This document shows, one piece after another, positions 1,594 to 51,032 of a DNA stretch of 64,000 bases. The DNA is from an uncultured Planctomycetota bacterium. Lineage in GTDB: Bacteria; Planctomycetota; Planctomycetia; Gemmatales; Gemmataceae. The position numbers and the translations under genes were made by a program. Below the pieces are notes generated by a model, which worked only from the letters and a program-made list of their open reading frames with translations, had not been told where the DNA came from and made no database searches. The first letter of the stretch is position 1. The number at the start of each line of letters is the position of its first letter. The stretch covers positions 200,853-264,852 of the forward strand of contig CAWATZ010000006.1 of NCBI GenBank assembly GCA_963784995.1, written 5' to 3'.

Positions 1594-3154
1594 ATGCCTG
1601 GCCTTTCGATCCGTCTGAGTCTGTGTCTGACCTGCCTCGCCGCGTTGCCGGCAGCCCACGCCGCCGACCCGACCGACCCTCGGCAACTGGCCGCCCGCAT
1701 CGACCGCCGCCTCGCCAACCGCTGGGAAGCAGCCGGCGTGAAGCCGGCCGACCGCAGCGACGATGCCGAGTTTCTCCGCCGCCTCTCGCTCGACCTCACC
1801 GGCAAGATCCCTTCCGTCGCCGAGGTTCGCCGCTTCCTGGCCGACCGCGCACCCGACAAGCGAGCCGTCCTCGTCGAGCGAATGCTCGCCGGTCCCGGTT
1901 ACGTCACGCACTCCGCCGGGACCTGGCGTCGGCTGCTCGTTCCCGACAGCCGAAAATCAAGTCGGCCGCGAGGCAGCCGTACTCGCACTGGAGAAATGGC
2001 TCCAGAAGCAATTCGCCGACAACGTCGGCCTCGACCGGCTGGCCCGCGAGCTGCTCACCTTCTCGCTGGACGAAACCCGGCCCGGCCGGGTCGATCCCGC
2101 CGAGCCGTCGCCGCGGATGTTCTACGCCGGCCGGGAGGAGAAGCCCGACGAACTGGCCGCGTCGATGACGCGCCTGTTCCTGGGCGTCCGGCTGGAGTGC
2201 GCCCAGTGCCACGATCACCCCTTCGTTCGCTGGAAACGGCAGGACTTCTGGAGCCAGGCCGCCTTCTTCACCAGCCTCCGCCGTCCCGCGGCAGCGACCC
2301 GCGCATTGACCATCCCCGGCACGGAACGCACCGTCCGGGCCCGGTTCCTCGATGGCCAGGCGCTGCCCGACGGCAAGGGTGATGGCCGGCCCGTCCTTGC
2401 GGATTGGCTAACGAACTCCGAGAACCCGTTCTTCGCCCGGGCCGCCGTCAATCGGCTGTGGGGCCAGTTCTTCGGCGTCGGTCTGGTCGATCCGGTCGAT
2501 GACATGACCGAGGAGAATAAGCCCAGCCATCCCGAACTGCTCGATGAGCTGGCCCGTGCCTTCGTGGTCAATCGCTTTGACCGCAAGGTCGTCATCCGCG
2601 CCATCGTGCTGTCGGACGCTTACCAGCGGAGCAGCGTCCTGAATTTAGCCCCGAAGGGGCGACAGTCAATAGACCAGGGCGTGAGCCCTGGGTTAGGCGC
2701 AGCTCCGCCCGATCCGCGTCTGTTCAGCCGGATGAACGTCAAGAGCCTGACTCCGGAGCAGGTCTACGACAGCCTGATCGAGGCCACCGGCTACCGGGGC
2801 CGGGAGATCGCCCGCCAACGCGCTCAGCTGCTGACGCGCTTCCCAGGCGTCGAACAGGTGCTGGAAGGCCAGACCGGCATCCCGCAGGCCCTGGCCCTGA
2901 TGAACGGCGACCTGCTGACCAGCGCCCTCCGCCTGGACGGCGACAACACCCTCAGCGCCGTCGTCAACAGCCCGTTCCTGGACACGGCCGGACAGGTCGA
3001 GACGCTGTTCCTGGCCGCACTCGGCCGGCCGCCTCGTCCCGGGGAAAAGGCTCGCATGGTTGCCCACGTCGAGAAGAGTTCCGCGAAAGGCATCGCCCTG
3101 AGCGACGTCTTCTGGGCCCTGCTCAACAGCGCCGAGTTCGTCCATAACCACTGA
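1594..3154 (+). CDS. Secreted DUF1549 (PSCyt2) / DUF1553 (PSD1) protein with an apparent +1 frameshift near 1935-1950
   Basis: A signal peptide and the RRLSLDLTGKIPS...DKRAVLVERML motif are in frame 1. The PSD1 part (CAQCHDHPF...) continues in frame 2 from about 1940. Confidence 0.6.
2647..2692. repeat. Solo arm of the family-C palindromic element, inside the PSD1 coding region with the frame kept open
   Basis: 45/46 identity to arm 2 of the palindrome at 37998-38043 (agccccgaaggggcgacagtcaatagaccagggcgtgagccctggg). Read through as ...LNLAPKGRQSIDQGVSPG.... Confidence 0.6.
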
Positions 3155-9143: not shown

Positions 9144-10490
9144 TCACAGGTCCGGCTGGAGCAAGCGAACGTGCCTCCCCTGCCGCTCCAGCAGCGCCTC
9201 GGCGGCCAGGTAGCCGCTGCGCACCGCTCCCTCCATCGTGGCGGGCCAGCCGGTGTTTGTCCAGTCACCGGCCAGCAGCAGGTTCCGGATCGGCGATGCC
9301 TGGCTCGGCCGCCACCGGTCCACGCCAGGGACCACGCTGAACGTCGCGGCATGCTCCGTCACCACCCGTCCGCGCAGCAGCCGAGCCTTGCGGGCCTCGG
9401 GAAACAGGCTCGCCAGCTCCTCCACGATCCGCCGTTGCACCTCCTCGTGCCCCAGGCCACGGAACTCCCGGGCGGCACTGACCACCACCTGGACGTAATG
9501 CTCGCCGGGGGAGGACTGACCTCGGTTGAAGAGCCACTGACCTAGCGTTTGGAGCAGCACCACGTGCGGCAGCCGGGTGATCGGCCGATCGTACCAGAGA
9601 TGGACGCTGGTTATTGGCGAAATCTCCAGCCGACGCAGGTTGGCGAAGGTCGGCTCGCTCTCGACCACGTTCTCCGGCAGCAGGTCGAGCAATCGGTCAA
9701 AGGGCACCGCGGGGATGAACCAATCAGCCTCCACGGTGCTACCGTCACGCATTCGCAATTGCTGGATTCGGCCGTCGGTCAGGGTAAGCTGCTTGCCCCC
9801 CTGTCCCAGCAGCAAGCGGACCCCGTGCTTGTCGAGCCACCCCTGCAGCTCCTGACCATAGAGCCGGCCCAGCGGCACCGTGGGCACCGACACCTCGAAT
9901 CCTCGGCGATGGCGCAGGAAAGCGTCCACGAACACCTTGCGGGCGTATTTCAGCCCGATCCGTTCCGGCGTCTCGTTCAGGGCGCTGACCAGGACCACGC
10001 TCCAGAAGCGTTCGATGACGCCGGGCGTCTGGCGATGTCGTTGCAGCCACTCCAGGAACGGCACATCGGCATCGGCGGGCGTGCGCTTCAGACAGGCCAG
10101 GGCCCAGGCGATCCGCAGTTTCTCCAGCGGCCCGAGGTAATGCGCCCCCAGGAACGCCCGGGCCAGGTGCAGCGGCGCGGGCAGCGGGTCGGCCTGGAAC
10201 TTGCTGATCCGGCGGTCGGGGGTCATGAAGTAGAGACACGGTTGCGGCTGCAGCAGGTGCTGGATGCCGACGGTCCGGCAGAAGTGGGCCAGGTTGGTGC
10301 AGCAGCCCATGCTGACGTGCTGGCAGGCGTCGATCAGCTGGCCCGTGCTGGTGTCGGTGAAGCTGCCGGCCCGGCCGCCCAGGCGGTTGCGCGACTCCAG
10401 CACGGTCACGTCCAGCCCCTGGCCGGCCAGCGCTGTCGCCGCCGCAAGTCCGGCCAGTCCGCCGCCGACTATGATCACCCGCTCCGCCAT
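9144..10490 (-). CDS. FAD-dependent amine-oxidase-family desaturase (HpnE-like squalene-associated desaturase)
   Basis: VIIVGGGLAGLAAA Rossmann N-terminus. ...LESRNRLGGRAGSF...QHV.MGCCTNL matches the HpnE / phytoene-desaturase-like pattern. Confidence 0.5.
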   Translation of the reverse strand: MAERVIIVGGGLAGLAAATALAGQGLDVTVLESRNRLGGRAGSFTDTSTGQLIDACQHVSMGCCTNLAHFCRTVGIQHLLQPQPCLYFMTPDRRISKFQADPLPAPLHLARAFLGAHYLGPLEKLRIAWALACLKRTPADADVPFLEWLQRHRQTPGVIERFWSVVLVSALNETPERIGLKYARKVFVDAFLRHRRGFEVSVPTVPLGRLYGQELQGWLDKHGVRLLLGQGGKQLTLTDGRIQQLRMRDGSTVEADWFIPAVPFDRLLDLLPENVVESEPTFANLRRLEISPITSVHLWYDRPITRLPHVVLLQTLGQWLFNRGQSSPGEHYVQVVVSAAREFRGLGHEEVQRRIVEELASLFPEARKARLLRGRVVTEHAATFSVVPGVDRWRPSQASPIRNLLLAGDWTNTGWPATMEGAVRSGYLAAEALLERQGRHVRLLQPDL

Positions 10491-24791: not shown

Positions 24792-24870
24792 GCCGAGCCG
24801 CGCACGCAGCGCAGCGGAGTAAGCGGGCTTTCAGCCCGCTTACTCCGCTGCGCTGCGTGCGCGGCTCGGC
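24792..24870. repeat. Family-A palindromic element, copy 1: perfect 38-bp stem, 3-nt loop
   Basis: gccgagccgcgcacgcagcgcagcggagtaagcgggct ttc agcccgcttactccgctgcgctgcgtgcgcggctcggc. The 32-nt core is identical to copy 2 at 47840-47915. Confidence 0.85.
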
Positions 24871-37944: not shown

Positions 37945-38043
37945 CCCAGGGCTCACGCCCTGGTCTATTGACTGCCGCCCCTTCGGGGCTGATTCTTAGC
38001 CCCGAAGGGGCGGCAGTCAATAGACCAGGGCGTGAGCCCTGGG
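37945..38043. repeat. Family-C palindromic element: perfect 46-bp stem, 7-nt loop, in the divergent promoter region upstream of the ECF sigma gene
   Basis: cccagggctcacgccctggtctattgactgccgccccttcggggct gattctt agccccgaaggggcggcagtcaatagaccagggcgtgagccctggg. Partial copies at 2647-2692 and 22612-22645. Confidence 0.85.
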
Positions 38044-44924: not shown

Positions 44925-45105
44925 GCAAATAAAACACTCCTGGCACGCCATGCAGCGAAATGCGGCCAGCCTTGCCCGAATACCCTGGCAGATGGCAGGC
45001 AGACAGAAAAATGACCCTCAAAGACGCCCGTCCGACAGCCAGAGGCACGCTCTGGCCTGTCCGCCACTTCAAAAGAATTGGCAGGCAGGGCAGGCAGAGA
45101 AGTGG
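44925..45105 (-). repeat. Conserved noncoding element, copy 2 (inverted relative to copy 1 at 10872-11050)
   Basis: Reverse complement aligns with 10872-11050, with a 50-nt core at about 80% identity (catttttctgtctgcctgccatctgccagggtattcgggcaaggctggcc). Contains ggcaggcag repeats. Confidence 0.45.
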
Positions 45106-45290
45106 AGACCTGTCGCGCCTCTGCTCCTTCCGGAACGGTGAAAGACACGCGAAATCGGTTCCCCTTTCCCTTCCGGAACGGTAGAATCCTGTCAGCATCG
45201 TCTGGCCCCGGAGTGCTCACGGGCTGGCGTCCGACCAGAGCAGTCGGCCCGGACTCCGTGAAGGAACCGGGCGCGAGGGGGAGCAAGGGC

Positions 45291-46184
45291 ATGCAGTGGC
45301 ACCCGATCCTGGCTCAGCTGTTGCGGCCCCTGGTGCAGGACTACTACGAGGTCCAGACCGATTTGCCGGTTGGCGATCTGCCGCGCCAGGCCGACGTTGT
45401 CCTGCTGCGACGCCGGGCGGCCGATCCTCCCTTTGTGGGCATCTGGCGGCATCTGCGCGTCTGGAACGTGCTGGAGTTCAAGGGGCCCAGCGACGACCCG
45501 GCCTTGCGCGATCTGGATCTGCTGCTGGAGCTGGGGCTGGGCATCGATCGGCGGCTGAACGAGCAGCGGCAGGAGCAGAAAGAGCCGTTGCTGAAACGTG
45601 TCGAGGTCGCCTGGTGGTTTCTCGCCAACCACCTGGGACGGCGGTTTCGGGCCGAGGTGGAAGCGGTGGTGGGATCACCCTTGCAGCAACTGGGCGAGGG
45701 GCTTTGGTCCTGTCCAGCGCTGGGGCGGGTGCTGTACCTGATTAGTCGGGACGCCTTGCCGGTGGAGCGGGAGAGCGTGCCGCTGCATCTGGTGACCGAG
45801 GAACCGTTGGAGCGGGTGGAGGCCCTGGCCCGCGTGCTGGTGCAGCAACCGGGCTTCTGGGATCTGTACGGGGGCTGGCTCGCCCAACTCAACCCCGAAA
45901 TCTGGGAGGAGCTTCAAACCATGATCCGCAAGATGGGTGCCGAGCCCAATCTCGATCTGCGCTGGCTGATCGATCAGGTCGGGCTCAAGCAAGTCATCGA
46001 CCAGGTTGGGCTCAAACAGGTCATTGACCAGGTGGGGTTCAAGCAGATCATCGACTTGGTGGGGTGGCAAGAGGTGTTCCAGACAGTTCCCCTTGGAGAA
46101 GTCATCGCCGCCATGGGAATGGACTGGTTTGTATCTCAGCTAAGCCCGGAACAACTCCAGGAGCTGAAAAGCCGCTTGCCTTGA
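45291..46184 (+). CDS. PD-(D/E)XK nuclease-family protein (Rpn/YhgA-like 'transposase_31') with C-terminal DUF4351-like region and tandem 9-aa repeats
   Basis: D...E.K motif (QADVVLL...NVLEFKGPSDD). C-terminal IDQVGLKQV x4 encoded by 27-bp tandem repeats at about 45955-46062. ...SPEQLQELKSRL tail. Confidence 0.5.
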   Translation: MQWHPILAQLLRPLVQDYYEVQTDLPVGDLPRQADVVLLRRRAADPPFVGIWRHLRVWNVLEFKGPSDDPALRDLDLLLELGLGIDRRLNEQRQEQKEPLLKRVEVAWWFLANHLGRRFRAEVEAVVGSPLQQLGEGLWSCPALGRVLYLISRDALPVERESVPLHLVTEEPLERVEALARVLVQQPGFWDLYGGWLAQLNPEIWEELQTMIRKMGAEPNLDLRWLIDQVGLKQVIDQVGLKQVIDQVGFKQIIDLVGWQEVFQTVPLGEVIAAMGMDWFVSQLSPEQLQELKSRLP

Positions 46185-46596
46185 GGCCGCTCCCAGCCTC
46201 AGTGGACCAAGCCGCCTCCAGCATTCCCGGAAAAAATCCCGCAGCAACCATTGCCCTGCACGCCTCGCCCCTCTATCATATCTTCCTGACAATCTGGTGA
46301 GTATCTTATCCAGAGTGGCTGAGGGTACAGGCCCTGCGATGCCACAGCAACCGGCTTCCCCCAGGAAGTGCTGGTGCTACCTCCTGCCCGGGACTCCCGG
46401 GAGAGATAAGATCGTGTGCCTCACACGCCTCTTCTTCTCGATCAGACCCGCGCGATCGACCCCGATCACCGCGGTCTTCCTTCCTGGATGATACACACCT
46501 CCACAACAATGACCGCCAGGACCAGCGCGAGTGCCTCGGCCTGGCCGTGAATTGCTTAAGGGAGGGTCCTTCGTGTCGTCTTCTTTTGTCCGCGGA

Positions 46597-47826
46597 ATGA
46601 AGTGCCGGCTGTGCGGCAAGCTGTATCCGGTCGGTCCGATCCAGTTCTGCGAGGAGGATTTCGGCCCCCTCGAGGTCGATTACGATTACACCGCCATCGC
46701 CGAGGCCGTCAGCCGGGAAAAGATCGCCCATCGGCCCTGGAACATGTGGCGCTACGAGGAGCTGCTGCCCCTGGACCGGGAGCCGACCGTTGGCACGCAG
46801 GTCGGGGGCACGCCGTTGCTCAAGGCGGATCGGCTGGCCGCCGCCCTGGGCGTCGAGAAGCTCTGGCTCAAGAACGACGCCGTCAACTTCCCCACGCTGT
46901 CGTTCAAGGACCGCGTCGTGGCCGTAGCCCTGAGCAAGGCCAAGGAAATGGGCTTCACCACCGTCGGCTGCGCCTCCACCGGCAACCTGGCCAACAGCGT
47001 CGCCGCCAACGCCGCCGCGGCGGGTCTGAGCAGTTACATCTTCGTGCCGGCCGATCTGGAGCGCTCCAAGATCCTCAATACCAGCGTCTACGGAGCCCAT
47101 CTGATCGGCGTCCGCGGCACCTATGACGAGGTCAACCGGCTCTGCACCCAGGTGGCCTTCAAGTTCGGCTGGGCGTTCGTCAACATCAACCTCCGGCCGT
47201 TCTACGCCGAGGGGTCCAAGTCGATGGGCTTCGAGATCGCCGAGCAGCTGGGCTGGCGCACCCCACAGCACGTCGTCTGCCCGATGGCCGGCGGCAGCCT
47301 GATCGGCAAGATCCACAAGGCGTTTCACGAGCTGCACAAGGTCGGCCTGCTGGAGCAGGAGCCCCGCTGCAAGATGTACGGGGCTCAGGCTAGCGGGTGT
47401 AGTCCGATCAGCACGGCGGTCAAGAACGGCTGGGACTCCCATCGCCCGGTGCGCAAGCCCTGCACCATCGCCAAGTCGCTGGCCATCGGCGACCCGGCCG
47501 ACGGCTACTTCGCTGCCCGGGTCATCCGCGAGACCGGCGGCTGGTCCGAGGACGTCTCCGATCAGGAGATCGCCCAGGCGATGGTCCTGCTCGGCCAAAC
47601 CGAGGGCGTCTTCGCCGAGACGGCCGGCGGCGTCACCGTGGCCGTGGCCCGCAAGCTGATCGAGCAGGGGCGGATTCCGCGCGACGAGGAGATCGTCCTG
47701 TGCATCACCGGCAACGGCCTCAAGACGCAGGACGCCGTGGTGGACTACCTGGAAAAGCCCGCGGTCATCGGGCCGACCCTGGAGGAGTTCGAGCCGCTGG
47801 TGGCCGGGGAAGCGGTGTTGGTGTAA
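46597..47826 (+). CDS. thrC: Threonine synthase (variant with an N-terminal Zn-ribbon)
   Basis: CRLCGK...C zinc ribbon, PLP-lysine motif (PTLSFKDRVVAV) and ThrC conservation. The start could be GTG 46573. Confidence 0.8.
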   Translation: MKCRLCGKLYPVGPIQFCEEDFGPLEVDYDYTAIAEAVSREKIAHRPWNMWRYEELLPLDREPTVGTQVGGTPLLKADRLAAALGVEKLWLKNDAVNFPTLSFKDRVVAVALSKAKEMGFTTVGCASTGNLANSVAANAAAAGLSSYIFVPADLERSKILNTSVYGAHLIGVRGTYDEVNRLCTQVAFKFGWAFVNINLRPFYAEGSKSMGFEIAEQLGWRTPQHVVCPMAGGSLIGKIHKAFHELHKVGLLEQEPRCKMYGAQASGCSPISTAVKNGWDSHRPVRKPCTIAKSLAIGDPADGYFAARVIRETGGWSEDVSDQEIAQAMVLLGQTEGVFAETAGGVTVAVARKLIEQGRIPRDEEIVLCITGNGLKTQDAVVDYLEKPAVIGPTLEEFEPLVAGEAVLV

Positions 47827-47839
47827 ACTGCGTTCGTCC

Positions 47840-47915
47840 GAGCCGCGCACGCAGCGCAGCGGAGTAAGCGGCCCGCAGGAAGACCGCTTACTCCGCTGCG
47901 CTGCGTGCGCGGCTC
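47840..47915. repeat. Family-A palindromic element, copy 2: perfect 32-bp stem, 12-nt loop, between thrC and the MoaD-like gene
   Basis: gagccgcgcacgcagcgcagcggagtaagcgg cccgcaggaaga ccgcttactccgctgcgctgcgtgcgcggctc. Confidence 0.85.
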
Positions 47916-47946
47916 AGAAAGAAAATCGTCCTTCGGAGGATAAGAT

Positions 47947-48219
47947 ATGTCCGTGAAGGTTCAGATTCCCACCCCGATGCGGCAGCACACCGAGGGCAAG
48001 ACCACCGTCGAGGCCCAGGGCAGCACGGTCCAGGCGGTGCTCGCCGACCTGGGAGCGAAGTATCCCGCCCTCACCGGCCGGCTGTTCGACAACGGCCAGC
48101 TGCGCCGGTTCATCAACCTGTTCCTCAACAACGAGGACATCCGTTACCTGTCCAACCTGGAAACGCCCGTCAAGGACGGCGACGAGCTGGCCATCATTCC
48201 CGCGGTCGCTGGAGGTTGA
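47947..48219 (+). CDS. MoaD/ThiS-family sulfur-carrier protein ending in Gly-Gly
   Basis: 90 aa, beta-grasp-like, C-terminal ...IIPAVAGG-stop. Confidence 0.7.
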   Translation: MSVKVQIPTPMRQHTEGKTTVEAQGSTVQAVLADLGAKYPALTGRLFDNGQLRRFINLFLNNEDIRYLSNLETPVKDGDELAIIPAVAGG

Positions 48220-48220
48220 C

Positions 48221-48571
48221 ATGGCGGACGAGGACGACGCCGGCCTGCCGGCGCCGGATGCCCAGGTGCCGGAAGGGGCGGCGGTCTTTCCCGAGATCCC
48301 CGAGGAGCTGGGCGTCGATCCCCTGTTCCTGGCCATGCTGCATGCCACCGTCTTCCTGGCCGGCTCGACCGAGGAGGTCGTCAACGGCGAGGCCGCCGAC
48401 GAGGCGGTGCAGGCGATGGCCGGGTATCTGCGGCGGCTGACGGGGAAGGAGCTGGCCCGGGTGCGCGAGGACCTGGAGTGTCTGGTGGGTTACGCCCGGC
48501 AATGCGAGTGGCCACGGGAGATGGTGCGCTTCCTCAAGAGCTTCCTGGCCGACTACGGCATCAGCCGTTAG
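48221..48571 (+). CDS. Hypothetical acidic protein (not JAMM-like)
   Basis: ORF begins 1 nt after the MoaD-like stop. No HxH or other metalloprotease motif. Confidence 0.4.
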   Translation: MADEDDAGLPAPDAQVPEGAAVFPEIPEELGVDPLFLAMLHATVFLAGSTEEVVNGEAADEAVQAMAGYLRRLTGKELARVREDLECLVGYARQCEWPREMVRFLKSFLADYGISR

Positions 48572-48658
48572 CCCGACGCGCCAGCGAGGGAGAGGACAAA
48601 ACCCTCGCTGGCGCGTCGGGCTAACGGCCGACTACGGCATCAGCACGGGAGAGACGAA

Positions 48659-49699
48659 ATGACGCGGGATGGGTCGCTGGAACGCTACAGCCGGCAGATG
48701 CGCTTTCACGGCATCGGCGAGGAGGGCCAGCGCCGCCTGGAGCGCGCCCGGGTCACCCTCTGTGGCTGTGGGGCCCTCGGCACCGTCCTGGCCAACGCTC
48801 TCGTCCGGGCCGGCGTCGGGCATCTGCGGCTGATCGACCGCGACTTCATTGAGATGAGCAACCTCCAGCGGCAGGTGCTTTTCGACGAGCATGACGTGGC
48901 CGAGAACCTGCCCAAGGCCGAGGCCGCTGCTCGCAAGCTCGCCGCCATCAACTCCAGCGTCCACGTCGAGCCGGTCGTCACCGACATCGATCGGACCAAC
49001 ATCCTGGAGCTGTGCTCCGACGCCGACCTGATCCTCGATGGGACGGACAATTTCGAGATCCGCTATCTGATCAACGACGTGGCGGTCAAGCTGAACAAGC
49101 CCTGGGTCTACGGTGGCTGCATCGGCAGCCACGGTCAGACCATGACCATCCTGCCCGGCCAGACGCCGTGCCTGCGCTGCGTCTTCGAGGCAGCCCCCGC
49201 CCCGGGCGAAACCGGCACCTGCGAGACGGCCGGCGTGCTGGGGCCGATCGTCAACGTGATCGCCAGCTACCAGGCAGCCGAGGCGATGAAGGTCCTGACG
49301 GGGCACCTGGAACAGGTCAACCGGGAGCTGCTGTACTTCGACCTGTGGGAGAACACATTCCGCCGGATCAAGATTGCCCCGCTGCTTGGCAAGGTCGATT
49401 GTCCCTGCTGCGGTCAGCGCCGCTTCGAGTGGCTGGAGGGAGCGTTCGGCTCGCAGACCACCAGCCTGTGCGGCCGCAATGCGGTGCAGGTGTCACAGCG
49501 GTCGGCGAGCAAGCTCAATTTCGAGGGACTGGCCCGAGACCTGGAACAGCTGGGCACGGTCAGCTACAACCGCTTCCTGCTCAAGTTCAACGCAGAAGGG
49601 TTCGAGTTCACCGTCTTCCCGGATGGCCGAGCGATCATCAAAGGCACCTCTGACGAGGACAGGGCCCGGTCGCTCTACGCGCGGTACATCGGACATTAG
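48659..49699 (+). CDS. ThiF/MoeB-family E1-like adenylyltransferase with a C-terminal extension
   Basis: YSRQ...GCGALG nucleotide-binding motif, CxxC...CPCC zinc motif, and about 100 extra C-terminal residues. Confidence 0.75.
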   Translation: MTRDGSLERYSRQMRFHGIGEEGQRRLERARVTLCGCGALGTVLANALVRAGVGHLRLIDRDFIEMSNLQRQVLFDEHDVAENLPKAEAAARKLAAINSSVHVEPVVTDIDRTNILELCSDADLILDGTDNFEIRYLINDVAVKLNKPWVYGGCIGSHGQTMTILPGQTPCLRCVFEAAPAPGETGTCETAGVLGPIVNVIASYQAAEAMKVLTGHLEQVNRELLYFDLWENTFRRIKIAPLLGKVDCPCCGQRRFEWLEGAFGSQTTSLCGRNAVQVSQRSASKLNFEGLARDLEQLGTVSYNRFLLKFNAEGFEFTVFPDGRAIIKGTSDEDRARSLYARYIGH

Positions 49700-50839
49700 T
49701 GCGGTCCCGCCACCGTTTGCCACCAATGTTCCGCCATGCCCAGTGACAGCGTCATGCCGGTCCCGCCCGTGGCCGTCATGATCGTCACTCCTCGGTCGCG
49801 GCTGGGCCGTGAACACCGGCAAGCTCGGGTGCTTGCCATACAGGCCGTGCCAGCGGCCAGCAATCGTCCAGTCGGGCAACTGCACCATCCCACGCAGATA
49901 GTCCAGGATCAGCTGATCGATCTCGGTCTTGTCAAACGGCTCGATCGCCTCGTCGTACTCGTGGGAATCGCCGATGACGACCTCCCCCAGATGATTCTGG
50001 GATGCCATGACGTGGATGCCGTGACGGACGAACTGCGGCAACTCCTCCTCGATGCGTTGCCGCAGCCGGGGCAGCGACGGACAGACGCGGAATGTCGGAT
50101 AGTGGCACAGCGTCAGCCCGCTGGCCAGGTGTGGGCCGAGAGTCCAGCCGGCCGGCTGCGGCACCGTGCGCATCATCTGCAGCTTGCAGCGGCGGATGCC
50201 CGAGCCGGCAAATACTTCGGGAAACAGCGTCTGGAAGTCGATACCGCCGGCCACGATCACCTGTTCCGCCTGCCAGGTGCGACCGTCCGCGGCGTGGACG
50301 TGCGGTGGGTCCACGGCCGTCACCGTCGTGCCGAAATGCACTTCCACCGGGTAGGTCCGGCTCAGGTACTCGGGAATGGTCGCGATCGCCTGGCGTGGAT
50401 CGACGCACAGCTCGGTCGGACTCCAGAGGGCCCCGAGCAATCCGTCGGGACGCACGGCCGGCGACCGGCGGAGCGTTTCCGCGAGGGTCAGCAGCTGGCA
50501 GTCAAAACCCAGGCCGGCGGATTGGCTGACGAACTCCTCCAGCACTGCCAGCTCGTCGTCCCGGTAAGCCAGGTGCAAGGAACCACAAGCGTTGATCCAG
50601 AAGCCCGCCTGCCGGGCCAGTTCCAGCCACAGCTCCCGGCTGCGCAGGGCCCGCTGGTGCATCTCGCCGGGAGTCTGGCCGATGGGCCAGATCATGCCGA
50701 AGTTGCGGATGGACGCCCCCCGCGGCCTGGGGTCGCGGTCAAACAGGCCGACCGAAAGCCCACGCCGGGCGGCCGACAAGGCATGGGCCAAACCCACGAT
50801 GCCGCCGCCGACCACCGCCACGTCCCGTTGTCGCCGCAT
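49696..50839 (-). CDS. FAD-dependent oxidoreductase (DAO family, TIGR03364-like); apparent frameshift near 49790-49805 removes the native C-terminus
   Basis: DVAVVGGGIVGLAHAL...SIRNFGMIWPIGQ. The native tail ...TGGTGMTLSLGMAEHWW is in the adjacent frame (ORF 49696-49893). Confidence 0.6.
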
Positions 50840-51032
50840 CTGTTTTCTCTTCCTGGTCCTCGATCGTTCCTTTGTGACAGCGTAGGGAACCACTGCCAGG
50901 GACGCCAGCGTTCATCGCTGGCATGGTCATTCTTTCGGCGGTCTTGTGCCCACCCCTTGCAAATCGCCTCCCGACCGGAGAAGATAACTCCAGCTTGCCC
51001 TGATTGACCCGACCCGAAGCTGGACTTCTCAA

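Follow-up and report, generated by a model that had tools for sequence, protein, structure and literature searches.

In the CysO-CysM-Mec+ system of Mycobacterium tuberculosis and the HcyS-HcyF-HcyD-MetY system of Wolinella succinogenes, a ThiS/MoaD-like carrier is activated by an E1 enzyme and, as a thiocarboxylate, feeds a pyridoxal phosphate (PLP) enzyme that makes a sulfur amino acid. In the pathway described for Streptomyces albulus, O-phosphohomoserine and a carrier thiocarboxylate yield homocysteine (Hasebe, Adachi, Maruyama, Hamano 2024, Appl Environ Microbiol 90:e01247-24; 10.1101/2024.10.14.618325). The GapMind account lists as parts of this pathway the carrier MetO, the hydrolase Mec, which matures MetO, the ligase MoeZ, and MetM as the homocysteine synthase (GapMind 2026, 10.1101/2024.10.14.618325). 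The same account presents MetM as a ThrC homologue that is "often misannotated" as threonine synthase and that uses the MetO thiocarboxylate and O-phosphohomoserine (10.1101/2024.10.14.618325). By these accounts, MetM rescues methionine auxotrophy (PMC12172450; 10.1101/2024.10.14.618325), and an S-adenosylmethionine (SAM) riboswitch lies upstream of S. albulus metM (PMC12172450). Here we describe four co-directional genes on the + strand, at 46.5-49.7 kb of a 64,000-nt stretch of DNA from an uncultured planctomycete of the Gemmataceae (contig CAWATZ010000006.1). This whole stretch is called the window below, and statements of absence from the window cover its 64 kb. The genes encode a ThrC-like PLP enzyme, a carrier of 90 amino acids (aa), an acidic protein of 116 aa and a ThiF/MoeB E1. 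We consider it probable (about 0.82) that they form a SAM-riboswitch-controlled methionine biosynthesis operon of the MetM/MetO type. The operon is almost certainly a further example of the route published in 2024, and not a new one. The first-pass annotation of this DNA had suggested, as one of two alternatives, a non-canonical sulfur amino acid route; the thiocarboxylate link that it proposed is supported, but the route is not an undescribed one, since it matches the published MetM/MetO pathway.

The decisive feature, which the first-pass annotation overlooked, is a SAM-I riboswitch ahead of the first gene (Table 1). It lies past the end of the upstream open reading frame (ORF; 46184) and past a promoter-like site, 160 nt ahead of the GTG start of the ThrC-like gene, on the same strand and with no gene between. 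With a SAM sensor in this position a methionine gene is expected, and a housekeeping threonine gene is not. Relatives were scanned with a covariance model based on three sequences and the Rfam structure, which replaced a MAFFT alignment of four riboswitches in which the Nonomuraea sequence was misaligned. Of 83 other loci, 46, from many phyla, have the riboswitch ahead of the orthologous operon on the + strand, while the same scan did not find it in the cyanobacterial loci, in agreement with the literature (PMC12172450). Over 47 orthologous leaders, 94% of cells were paired and 20 of 33 pairs had compensatory changes, with slid controls at about 42%. In the window, the aptamer is followed by a hairpin (46413-46427) with the pyrimidine-rich tail CCTCTTCTTC, and then by a GC-rich hairpin (about 46444-46477) followed by TTCCTTCC. 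The Nonomuraea aptamer comes to within 13 nt of the ATG, an arrangement suggestive of control at the level of translation in that organism.

The association of these genes is widely conserved. An alignment of the PLP enzyme, used to scan one genome per species, gave 80 loci, 54-78% identical, from Planctomycetota, Verrucomicrobiota, Nitrospinota, Nitrospirota, Acidobacteriota, Cyanobacteria, Chloroflexota, Binatia and others. A carrier gene was found by tblastn directly downstream of the PLP gene in about 73 of the 80. The order PALP, ThiS, small protein, ThiF recurs between unrelated flanks in two close relatives, one 80% and the other 90% identical. The first-pass annotation had left open two alternatives, a ThrC-like enzyme that uses a thiocarboxylate and an incidental linkage, and had proposed looking for the four-gene order in relatives. 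That order is kept, with unrelated flanks, in all ten contexts that hold the small protein, and together with the carrier adjacency and the riboswitch it supports the first alternative. Under a broader form of the second, the linkage would be incidental, or the carrier and E1 would serve molybdopterin, thiamin, tRNA thiolation or SAMP-like conjugation beside an ordinary ThrC. The carrier does pass the NCBIfam SAMP1 cut-off (64.6 vs 60), and the E1 resembles MoeB/ThiF. However, the adjacency is kept across phyla despite differing flanks, and a single SAM riboswitch precedes the whole unit, including the loci L025, L040 and L073, where the E1 gene comes first and the riboswitch precedes it. Moreover, no moa, thi or tRNA-thiolation genes were found near the operon. 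This explanation is largely refuted by the conservation data, and we give it next to no credence.

The PLP enzyme belongs, as judged from sequence comparison, to a paralogous clade distinct from housekeeping threonine synthases. The members of the carrier-linked clade, from at least eight phyla, are 50-90% identical to each other. The characterised ThrCs of Aquifex, B. subtilis and T. thermophilus and the canonical ThrC of Nonomuraea share 55-60% mutual identity, and identity between the two groups is only 32-40%. The window enzyme itself is 35-37% identical to the characterised ThrCs, compared with 52% and 57% to the Nonomuraea and Microcystis homologues, respectively. Nonomuraea gerenzanensis, the single complete actinomycete record available (filed among plasmids), has both paralogues, 33% identical to each other: a canonical ThrC at 2.50 Mb, and at 11.81 Mb a riboswitch-linked metM-like gene followed by a Gly-Gly (GG) carrier. 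When 83 clade members were compared by column with three solved ThrCs (T. thermophilus 1UIM, B. subtilis 6CGQ and Aquifex 2ZSJ), 54 invariant columns were common to both, including the Schiff-base Lys112 (SFKDR) and the S-T-G-N loop. Another 18 columns are fixed differently from ThrC, including a change of KDRG to KDRV and an altered GNAGN loop. Thr88, Ser155 and Arg160 of T. thermophilus correspond to Leu139, Asn206 and Tyr211, invariant in the 83 members, and the Tyr at the Arg160 position is accompanied by a new Arg two residues earlier. In T. thermophilus ThrC we take these three residues to be the ones that hold the substrate/product phosphate, which steers the addition of water. A phosphate site remodelled in this way would fit a change of nucleophile. 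The enzyme shares with canonical ThrC the type II fold of PLP enzymes, the lysine and loop named above, and probably the substrate O-phosphohomoserine. It differs in its SAM regulation, in the substitutions just described and in an additional N-terminal zinc ribbon. The ribbon (46603-46662, residues 11-30 of 417) reads CxxC...CxxD, with Asp for the fourth Cys, in the window and in close relatives, and CxxC...CxxC in the Nonomuraea, cyanobacterial and Nitrospinota homologues. The earlier view of the enzyme as a genuine threonine synthase is contradicted by the separate clade, the low identity to characterised ThrCs and the fixed differences in phosphate-site residues. Placement of the enzyme, a check which the first-pass annotation had also proposed, gives by identity no grouping with housekeeping threonine synthases.

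Zinc-ribbon "thrC" genes on haloarchaeal plasmids were considered as further members of the carrier-linked clade and rejected. They are 38-41% identical to the window protein, and the one inspected (L084, Haladaptatus plasmid NZ_CP111042.1) has no carrier gene nearby and lies near D-aminoacylase and threonine/serine dehydratase genes, so they form a different clade. At about 39% identity to canonical ThrC they look like a third clade of the ThrC family.

The layout agrees with that described for S. albulus, where, by the accounts cited above, the gene for a ThrC-homologous PLP enzyme is likewise followed by a GG carrier gene, with a SAM riboswitch upstream and the same predicted chemistry. Nonomuraea shows the same order of riboswitch, metM and metO, and its MetO-like protein is 45% identical to the window carrier. 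The two systems differ in how the carrier is loaded. In S. albulus, according to those accounts, MoeZ (an E1 with a rhodanese domain) loads the carrier and the JAMM hydrolase Mec matures it, and neither is part of the metM-metO pair. The window operon has its own E1 with a TBP-like domain and an additional 116-aa protein, and no JAMM hydrolase is present. JAMM maturation is not needed here, because the carrier already ends in GG. MoeZ and Mec are accessory features that do not define the MetM/MetO core, and the window operon has the core without both.

The CysO and HcyS systems share the carrier-thiocarboxylate logic, and the best solved relatives of the window carrier are 4n6e_B (E 2.4e-23) and M. 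tuberculosis CysO (3dwg_C, E 1e-22). They differ in the PLP partner, which is derived from ThrC in the window and is not CysM/CysK or MetY, in the expected leaving group, phosphate on homoserine, and in the JAMM protease, which the window lacks. Compared with CysO/CysM/Mec cysteine synthesis, the operon contains neither the CysM/CysK-type enzyme nor the JAMM protein, and its carrier alone is CysO-like. SAM riboswitches also control some cysteine-related genes. A route in which O-phosphoserine and the carrier thiocarboxylate give cysteine, with CysM/CysO-like logic on a ThrC scaffold, as cysteate synthase works with sulfite, could draw on these two points and on a weak match of the enzyme to the cysteate synthase model TIGR03844, a ThrC relative (61.8 bits). 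That score is far under the cut-off of 324.9, and the cysteine synthase A model gives 38 bits against a cut-off of 387. Moreover, in the published accounts, MetM acts on O-phosphohomoserine and rescues methionine auxotrophy. We therefore regard a cysteine product as very improbable.

Several observations weigh against a MetM/MetO operon. The enzyme matches PALP (E 7.5e-70) and scores 270.6 bits with the ThrC model TIGR00260, above the cut-off of 167.1, although this model does not discriminate, since the riboswitch-linked Nonomuraea and Microcystis proteins pass it too. The orthology to S. albulus MetM would rest on two intermediates, Nonomuraea and Microcystis. The Microcystis "ThrC", encoded beside a metO-like gene, is 51.6% identical to MetM; it reportedly acted in vitro both as a threonine synthase and as a threonine deaminase, and caused no rise in methionine in vivo (PMC12172450). 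In the window leader the U tract is poor and the terminator after the aptamer weak, while hairpin-plus-U-tract terminators are clear at the matching position in the relatives L005, L009, L054 and L072. Finally, neither a sulfur donor (cysteine desulfurase or rhodanese) nor a hydrolase able to free homocysteine from a possible stable carrier-homocysteine adduct was found encoded in the window. Some of these points favour a dual-function enzyme, which would be the threonine synthase (or threonine deaminase) of the cell and also, or weakly, a homocysteine synthase, as suggested for the Microcystis homologue. The absence of a second ThrC-family gene from the window fits as well. On the other hand, with a housekeeping threonine gene under a SAM riboswitch the cell would run out of threonine at high SAM, the ThrC phosphate-site residues are replaced throughout the clade, and Nonomuraea keeps a canonical ThrC beside its MetM-like gene. 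A dual function is in our judgement unlikely, and a dedicated MetM/MetO operon is the reading that we retain.

By the family of its proteins and by the published work, such an operon would produce homocysteine as follows. The E1, as a ThiF/MoeB family member, would use ATP to adenylate the C-terminal Gly-Gly of the carrier. Sulfur, most likely a cysteine-derived persulfide, would then turn the acyl-adenylate into the carrier thiocarboxylate. In most relatives the persulfide source would be a TIGR01977-type desulfurase encoded just after the E1, and in the window genome one encoded elsewhere. E1 Cys188 and/or Cys271 may serve as sulfur-relay residues. The ThrC-like enzyme would remove phosphate from O-phospho-L-homoserine and add the thiocarboxylate sulfur at C-gamma, instead of water at C-beta; this step is taken from the S. 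albulus MetM/MetO work and is consistent with the remodelled phosphate site. Homocysteine would be released, and plentiful SAM would bind the leader aptamer; we infer that this shuts the operon off.

The E1 has a ThiF domain (residues 10-240), the cysteine pairs C171xxC174 and C248-P-C-C251, and about 90 additional C-terminal residues. Residues 4-253 can be aligned with E. coli ThiF (1zfn) and MoeB (1jw9), and in this alignment C188 falls on the ThiF loop cysteine. Cys271 is invariant among the 120 homologues in which cysteine conservation was judged. The C-terminal part, whose nature the first-pass annotation overlooked, is a TBP-like domain, and it stands in the place of the rhodanese domain of MoeZ-type E1s. 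The model PRK12475 aligns over the full length of the E1, with a score of 395 that is below the cut-off of 510. E1s with a C-terminal TBP domain are described among the MoeB/ThiF proteins and have the same arrangement, with one TBP-like domain after the E1 core (Brindefalk et al. 2013, PMC3597702; Makarova and Koonin 2010, PMC2948915; NCBIfam PRK12475). In those proteins the domain has no assigned function, whereas the window E1 is tied to methionine synthesis by operon and riboswitch.

The 116-aa protein has no Pfam or NCBIfam match. It is predicted to form four helices (predicted local distance difference test, pLDDT, 81), and a structural search with the predicted model gave no informative match. 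Its relatives number 355 among 5.8 billion proteins, with 199 representatives among 1.84 billion, and it stands between carrier and E1 in 10 of 10 contexts seen. A cysteine-dependent catalytic role is unlikely, since relatives have Ser, Thr or Gln in place of its one conserved Cys. With low confidence we see it as a lineage-specific accessory, a protein-binding adaptor within the sulfur-loading step. The distant relatives P0273, P0354, P0359 and P0375 are fused to ankyrin repeats, to a WGR-like N-terminal domain (by eye) or to a 220-aa domain; the helical module is therefore not confined to methionine operons. Gemmataceae-like bacteria could, as a tentative proposal that we hold to be more doubtful than probable, have a self-contained carrier-loading relay without rhodanese or JAMM. 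It would consist of the TIGR01977 desulfurase, the E1, with its TBP-like domain and Cys271 replacing rhodanese, and the 116-aa protein as an obligatory adaptor. The adaptor might, for example, dock desulfurase or carrier onto the E1, or pass the loaded carrier to MetM. If this is true, it would be the first function for the long-unexplained TBP domain of MoeB-like E1s and for an unannotated protein family.

The genes for sulfur supply vary among the surveyed loci. The operon includes the long E1 with the extra domain at the Gemmatales-like loci and at L009, L040, L072 and L081, and a short E1 adjoins the metM/metO pair in Nitrospinota, Nitrospirota and Binatia. A desulfurase of the TIGR01977 family (412 bits vs a cut-off of 377) follows the E1 in L001, L005-L007, L009, L040, L072, L086, L087 and one JGI contig, and is not found in this position in the window or in L002. 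JAMM genes were found only at L015, L023 and L024. About half of the surveyed carriers end in GG followed by the stop codon, including all those of Gemmatales-like loci, and the rest have C-terminal extensions. In other phyla, the carriers of L015, L023, L024, L013 and about 34 more loci have residues past GG, 1-15 in most and more in a few, and in L015 and L024 the tail has at least 80 residues and is NIL-domain-like by eye. Other ORFs occur at some loci. L024 has a CysK/CysM-type PLP-like ORF (by eye) between metM and the JAMM gene, and L013 has a small TusA-like ORF (by eye) and a 326-aa ORF between metM and metO, where L001 and the JGI contig have an ORF of 176-192 aa. Uma2-family genes (PF05685) and small ORFs lie between E1 and desulfurase genes in several relatives (L002 12204-12785; L086 8551-9165; JGI contig MUgbhx18). 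The sulfur-supply modules around the MetM/MetO core look interchangeable, and include short E1 with JAMM, E1-TBP with desulfurase, and TusA-like proteins.

Table 1. Features of the metM/metO-like operon and its leader in the 64,000-nt window.
Feature	Position	Strand	Description
Sigma-70-like promoter candidate	46251..46279	+	TTGCCC, 17 nt, TATCAT; consensus scan, 1 found vs 0.3 expected; weak; 24 nt upstream of riboswitch
SAM-I (S-box) riboswitch aptamer	46303..46412	+	Rfam RF00162, 81.5 bits vs gathering 44.4, E 1.2e-17; model positions 1-108 of 108, P1-P4 architecture complete
Riboswitch expression platform / leader	46413..46572	+	Two hairpins; Shine-Dalgarno GGGAGG at ~46561
metM-like gene	46573..47826	+	ThrC-homologous PLP enzyme, 417 aa, N-terminal zinc ribbon; PALP and TIGR00260 matches; predicted homocysteine synthase, carrier-thiocarboxylate-dependent
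Dispersed palindromic element	47837-47871 / 47884-47918		35-nt arms, 97% complementary; between metM and metO
metO-like gene	47947..48219	+	CysO/ThiS/MoaD-type sulfur-carrier protein, 90 aa, C-terminal Gly-Gly then stop; ThiS PF02597 E 9e-19
Small acidic four-helix protein	48221..48571	+	116 aa, pI 4.3; start codon 1 nt past metO stop
Second palindrome	48561..48631		30-nt arms, 97% complementary; spans small-gene stop codon and spacer before E1 gene; unrelated to first
E1 adenylation domain (ThiF/MoeB type)	48659..49423	+	ThiF PF00899 E 4.8e-79; G36xGxxG; zinc site C171/C174/C248/C251; crossover-loop C188
E1 C-terminal TBP-like domain	49424..49699	+	~90 aa; preceded by invariant C271 (SLCGRN)

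All the parts listed in the first-pass annotation were found on the + strand and in its order: ThrC-like gene, palindrome, GG carrier, small acidic gene, and E1 with cysteine pairs and an additional C-terminal domain. It had placed the start of the first gene at 46597, which is an internal ATG. The GTG at 46573 is the likelier start, as it lies 7 nt past the Shine-Dalgarno sequence and gives the 417-aa length of the database protein P0001, to which the product is 100% identical. The metO-like ORF begins 120 nt downstream of the metM-like gene, and the complete E1 gene (48659-49699) encodes 346 aa. The reported absence of JAMM and rhodanese components is borne out, with no JAMM motif anywhere in the window and no rhodanese domain in the Pfam-scanned proteins; a tblastn probe with an E. 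coli GlpE sequence, a weak and insensitive search, also gave no rhodanese match in the window. No Aminotran_5 gene was found there.

The palindrome between metM and metO is a dispersed REP-like (repetitive extragenic palindromic) element. Its core (GCGCAGCGGAGTAAGCGG, in both orientations) recurs at 24809-24853, with 4 matches where 0.15 are expected. A functional role for it in the operon was rejected, because the repeat is dispersed and the closest relative, the 90%-identical L002, lacks it and has at this place a 71-nt gap without an inverted repeat. The second palindrome was overlooked in the first-pass annotation, and L002 has an unrelated palindrome with 28-nt arms at the matching position (9957-10020). 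Long hairpins within the operon might set a different mRNA stability for upstream and downstream genes.

Upstream of the operon, the ORF at 45078-46184 (+) belongs to no Pfam or NCBIfam family and has a short tandem peptide repeat (IDQVGLKQV, three times) near its C-terminus. Downstream, a convergent ORF at 49493-50893 (-) for a TIGR03364 (HpnW_proposed) FAD oxidoreductase shares about 207 nt with the 3' end of the E1 gene. The TIGR03364 match extends no further than residue 368 of 466, and the tail that overlaps may therefore not be genuinely coding. Elsewhere in the window, the Rfam family Acido-Lenti-1 RNA has matches at 37945-37990 (+), 37998-38043 (-) and 2647-2692 (-), scoring about 50 bits where the gathering score is 37. 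Two of these matches are inverted relative to each other, with 7 nt between them. The matches may represent another palindromic repeat family and not small RNA genes.

What is specific to Gemmataceae-like operons is the sulfur-loading module, which has no JAMM protein, includes the four-helix protein and, in most relatives but not in the window, a desulfurase. Within a pathway that is already known, the 116-aa protein and the E1 with its TBP domain are details particular to this lineage. The survey places the MetM/MetO pair in at least eight phyla, mostly under the control of a SAM riboswitch. NCBIfam and JGI label the window enzyme and hundreds of its relatives "threonine synthase". Metabolic reconstructions of Planctomycetes and of many uncultured phyla will miss this methionine route and may count a false threonine synthase, and the practical value of the finding lies mainly in the correction of this widespread annotation.

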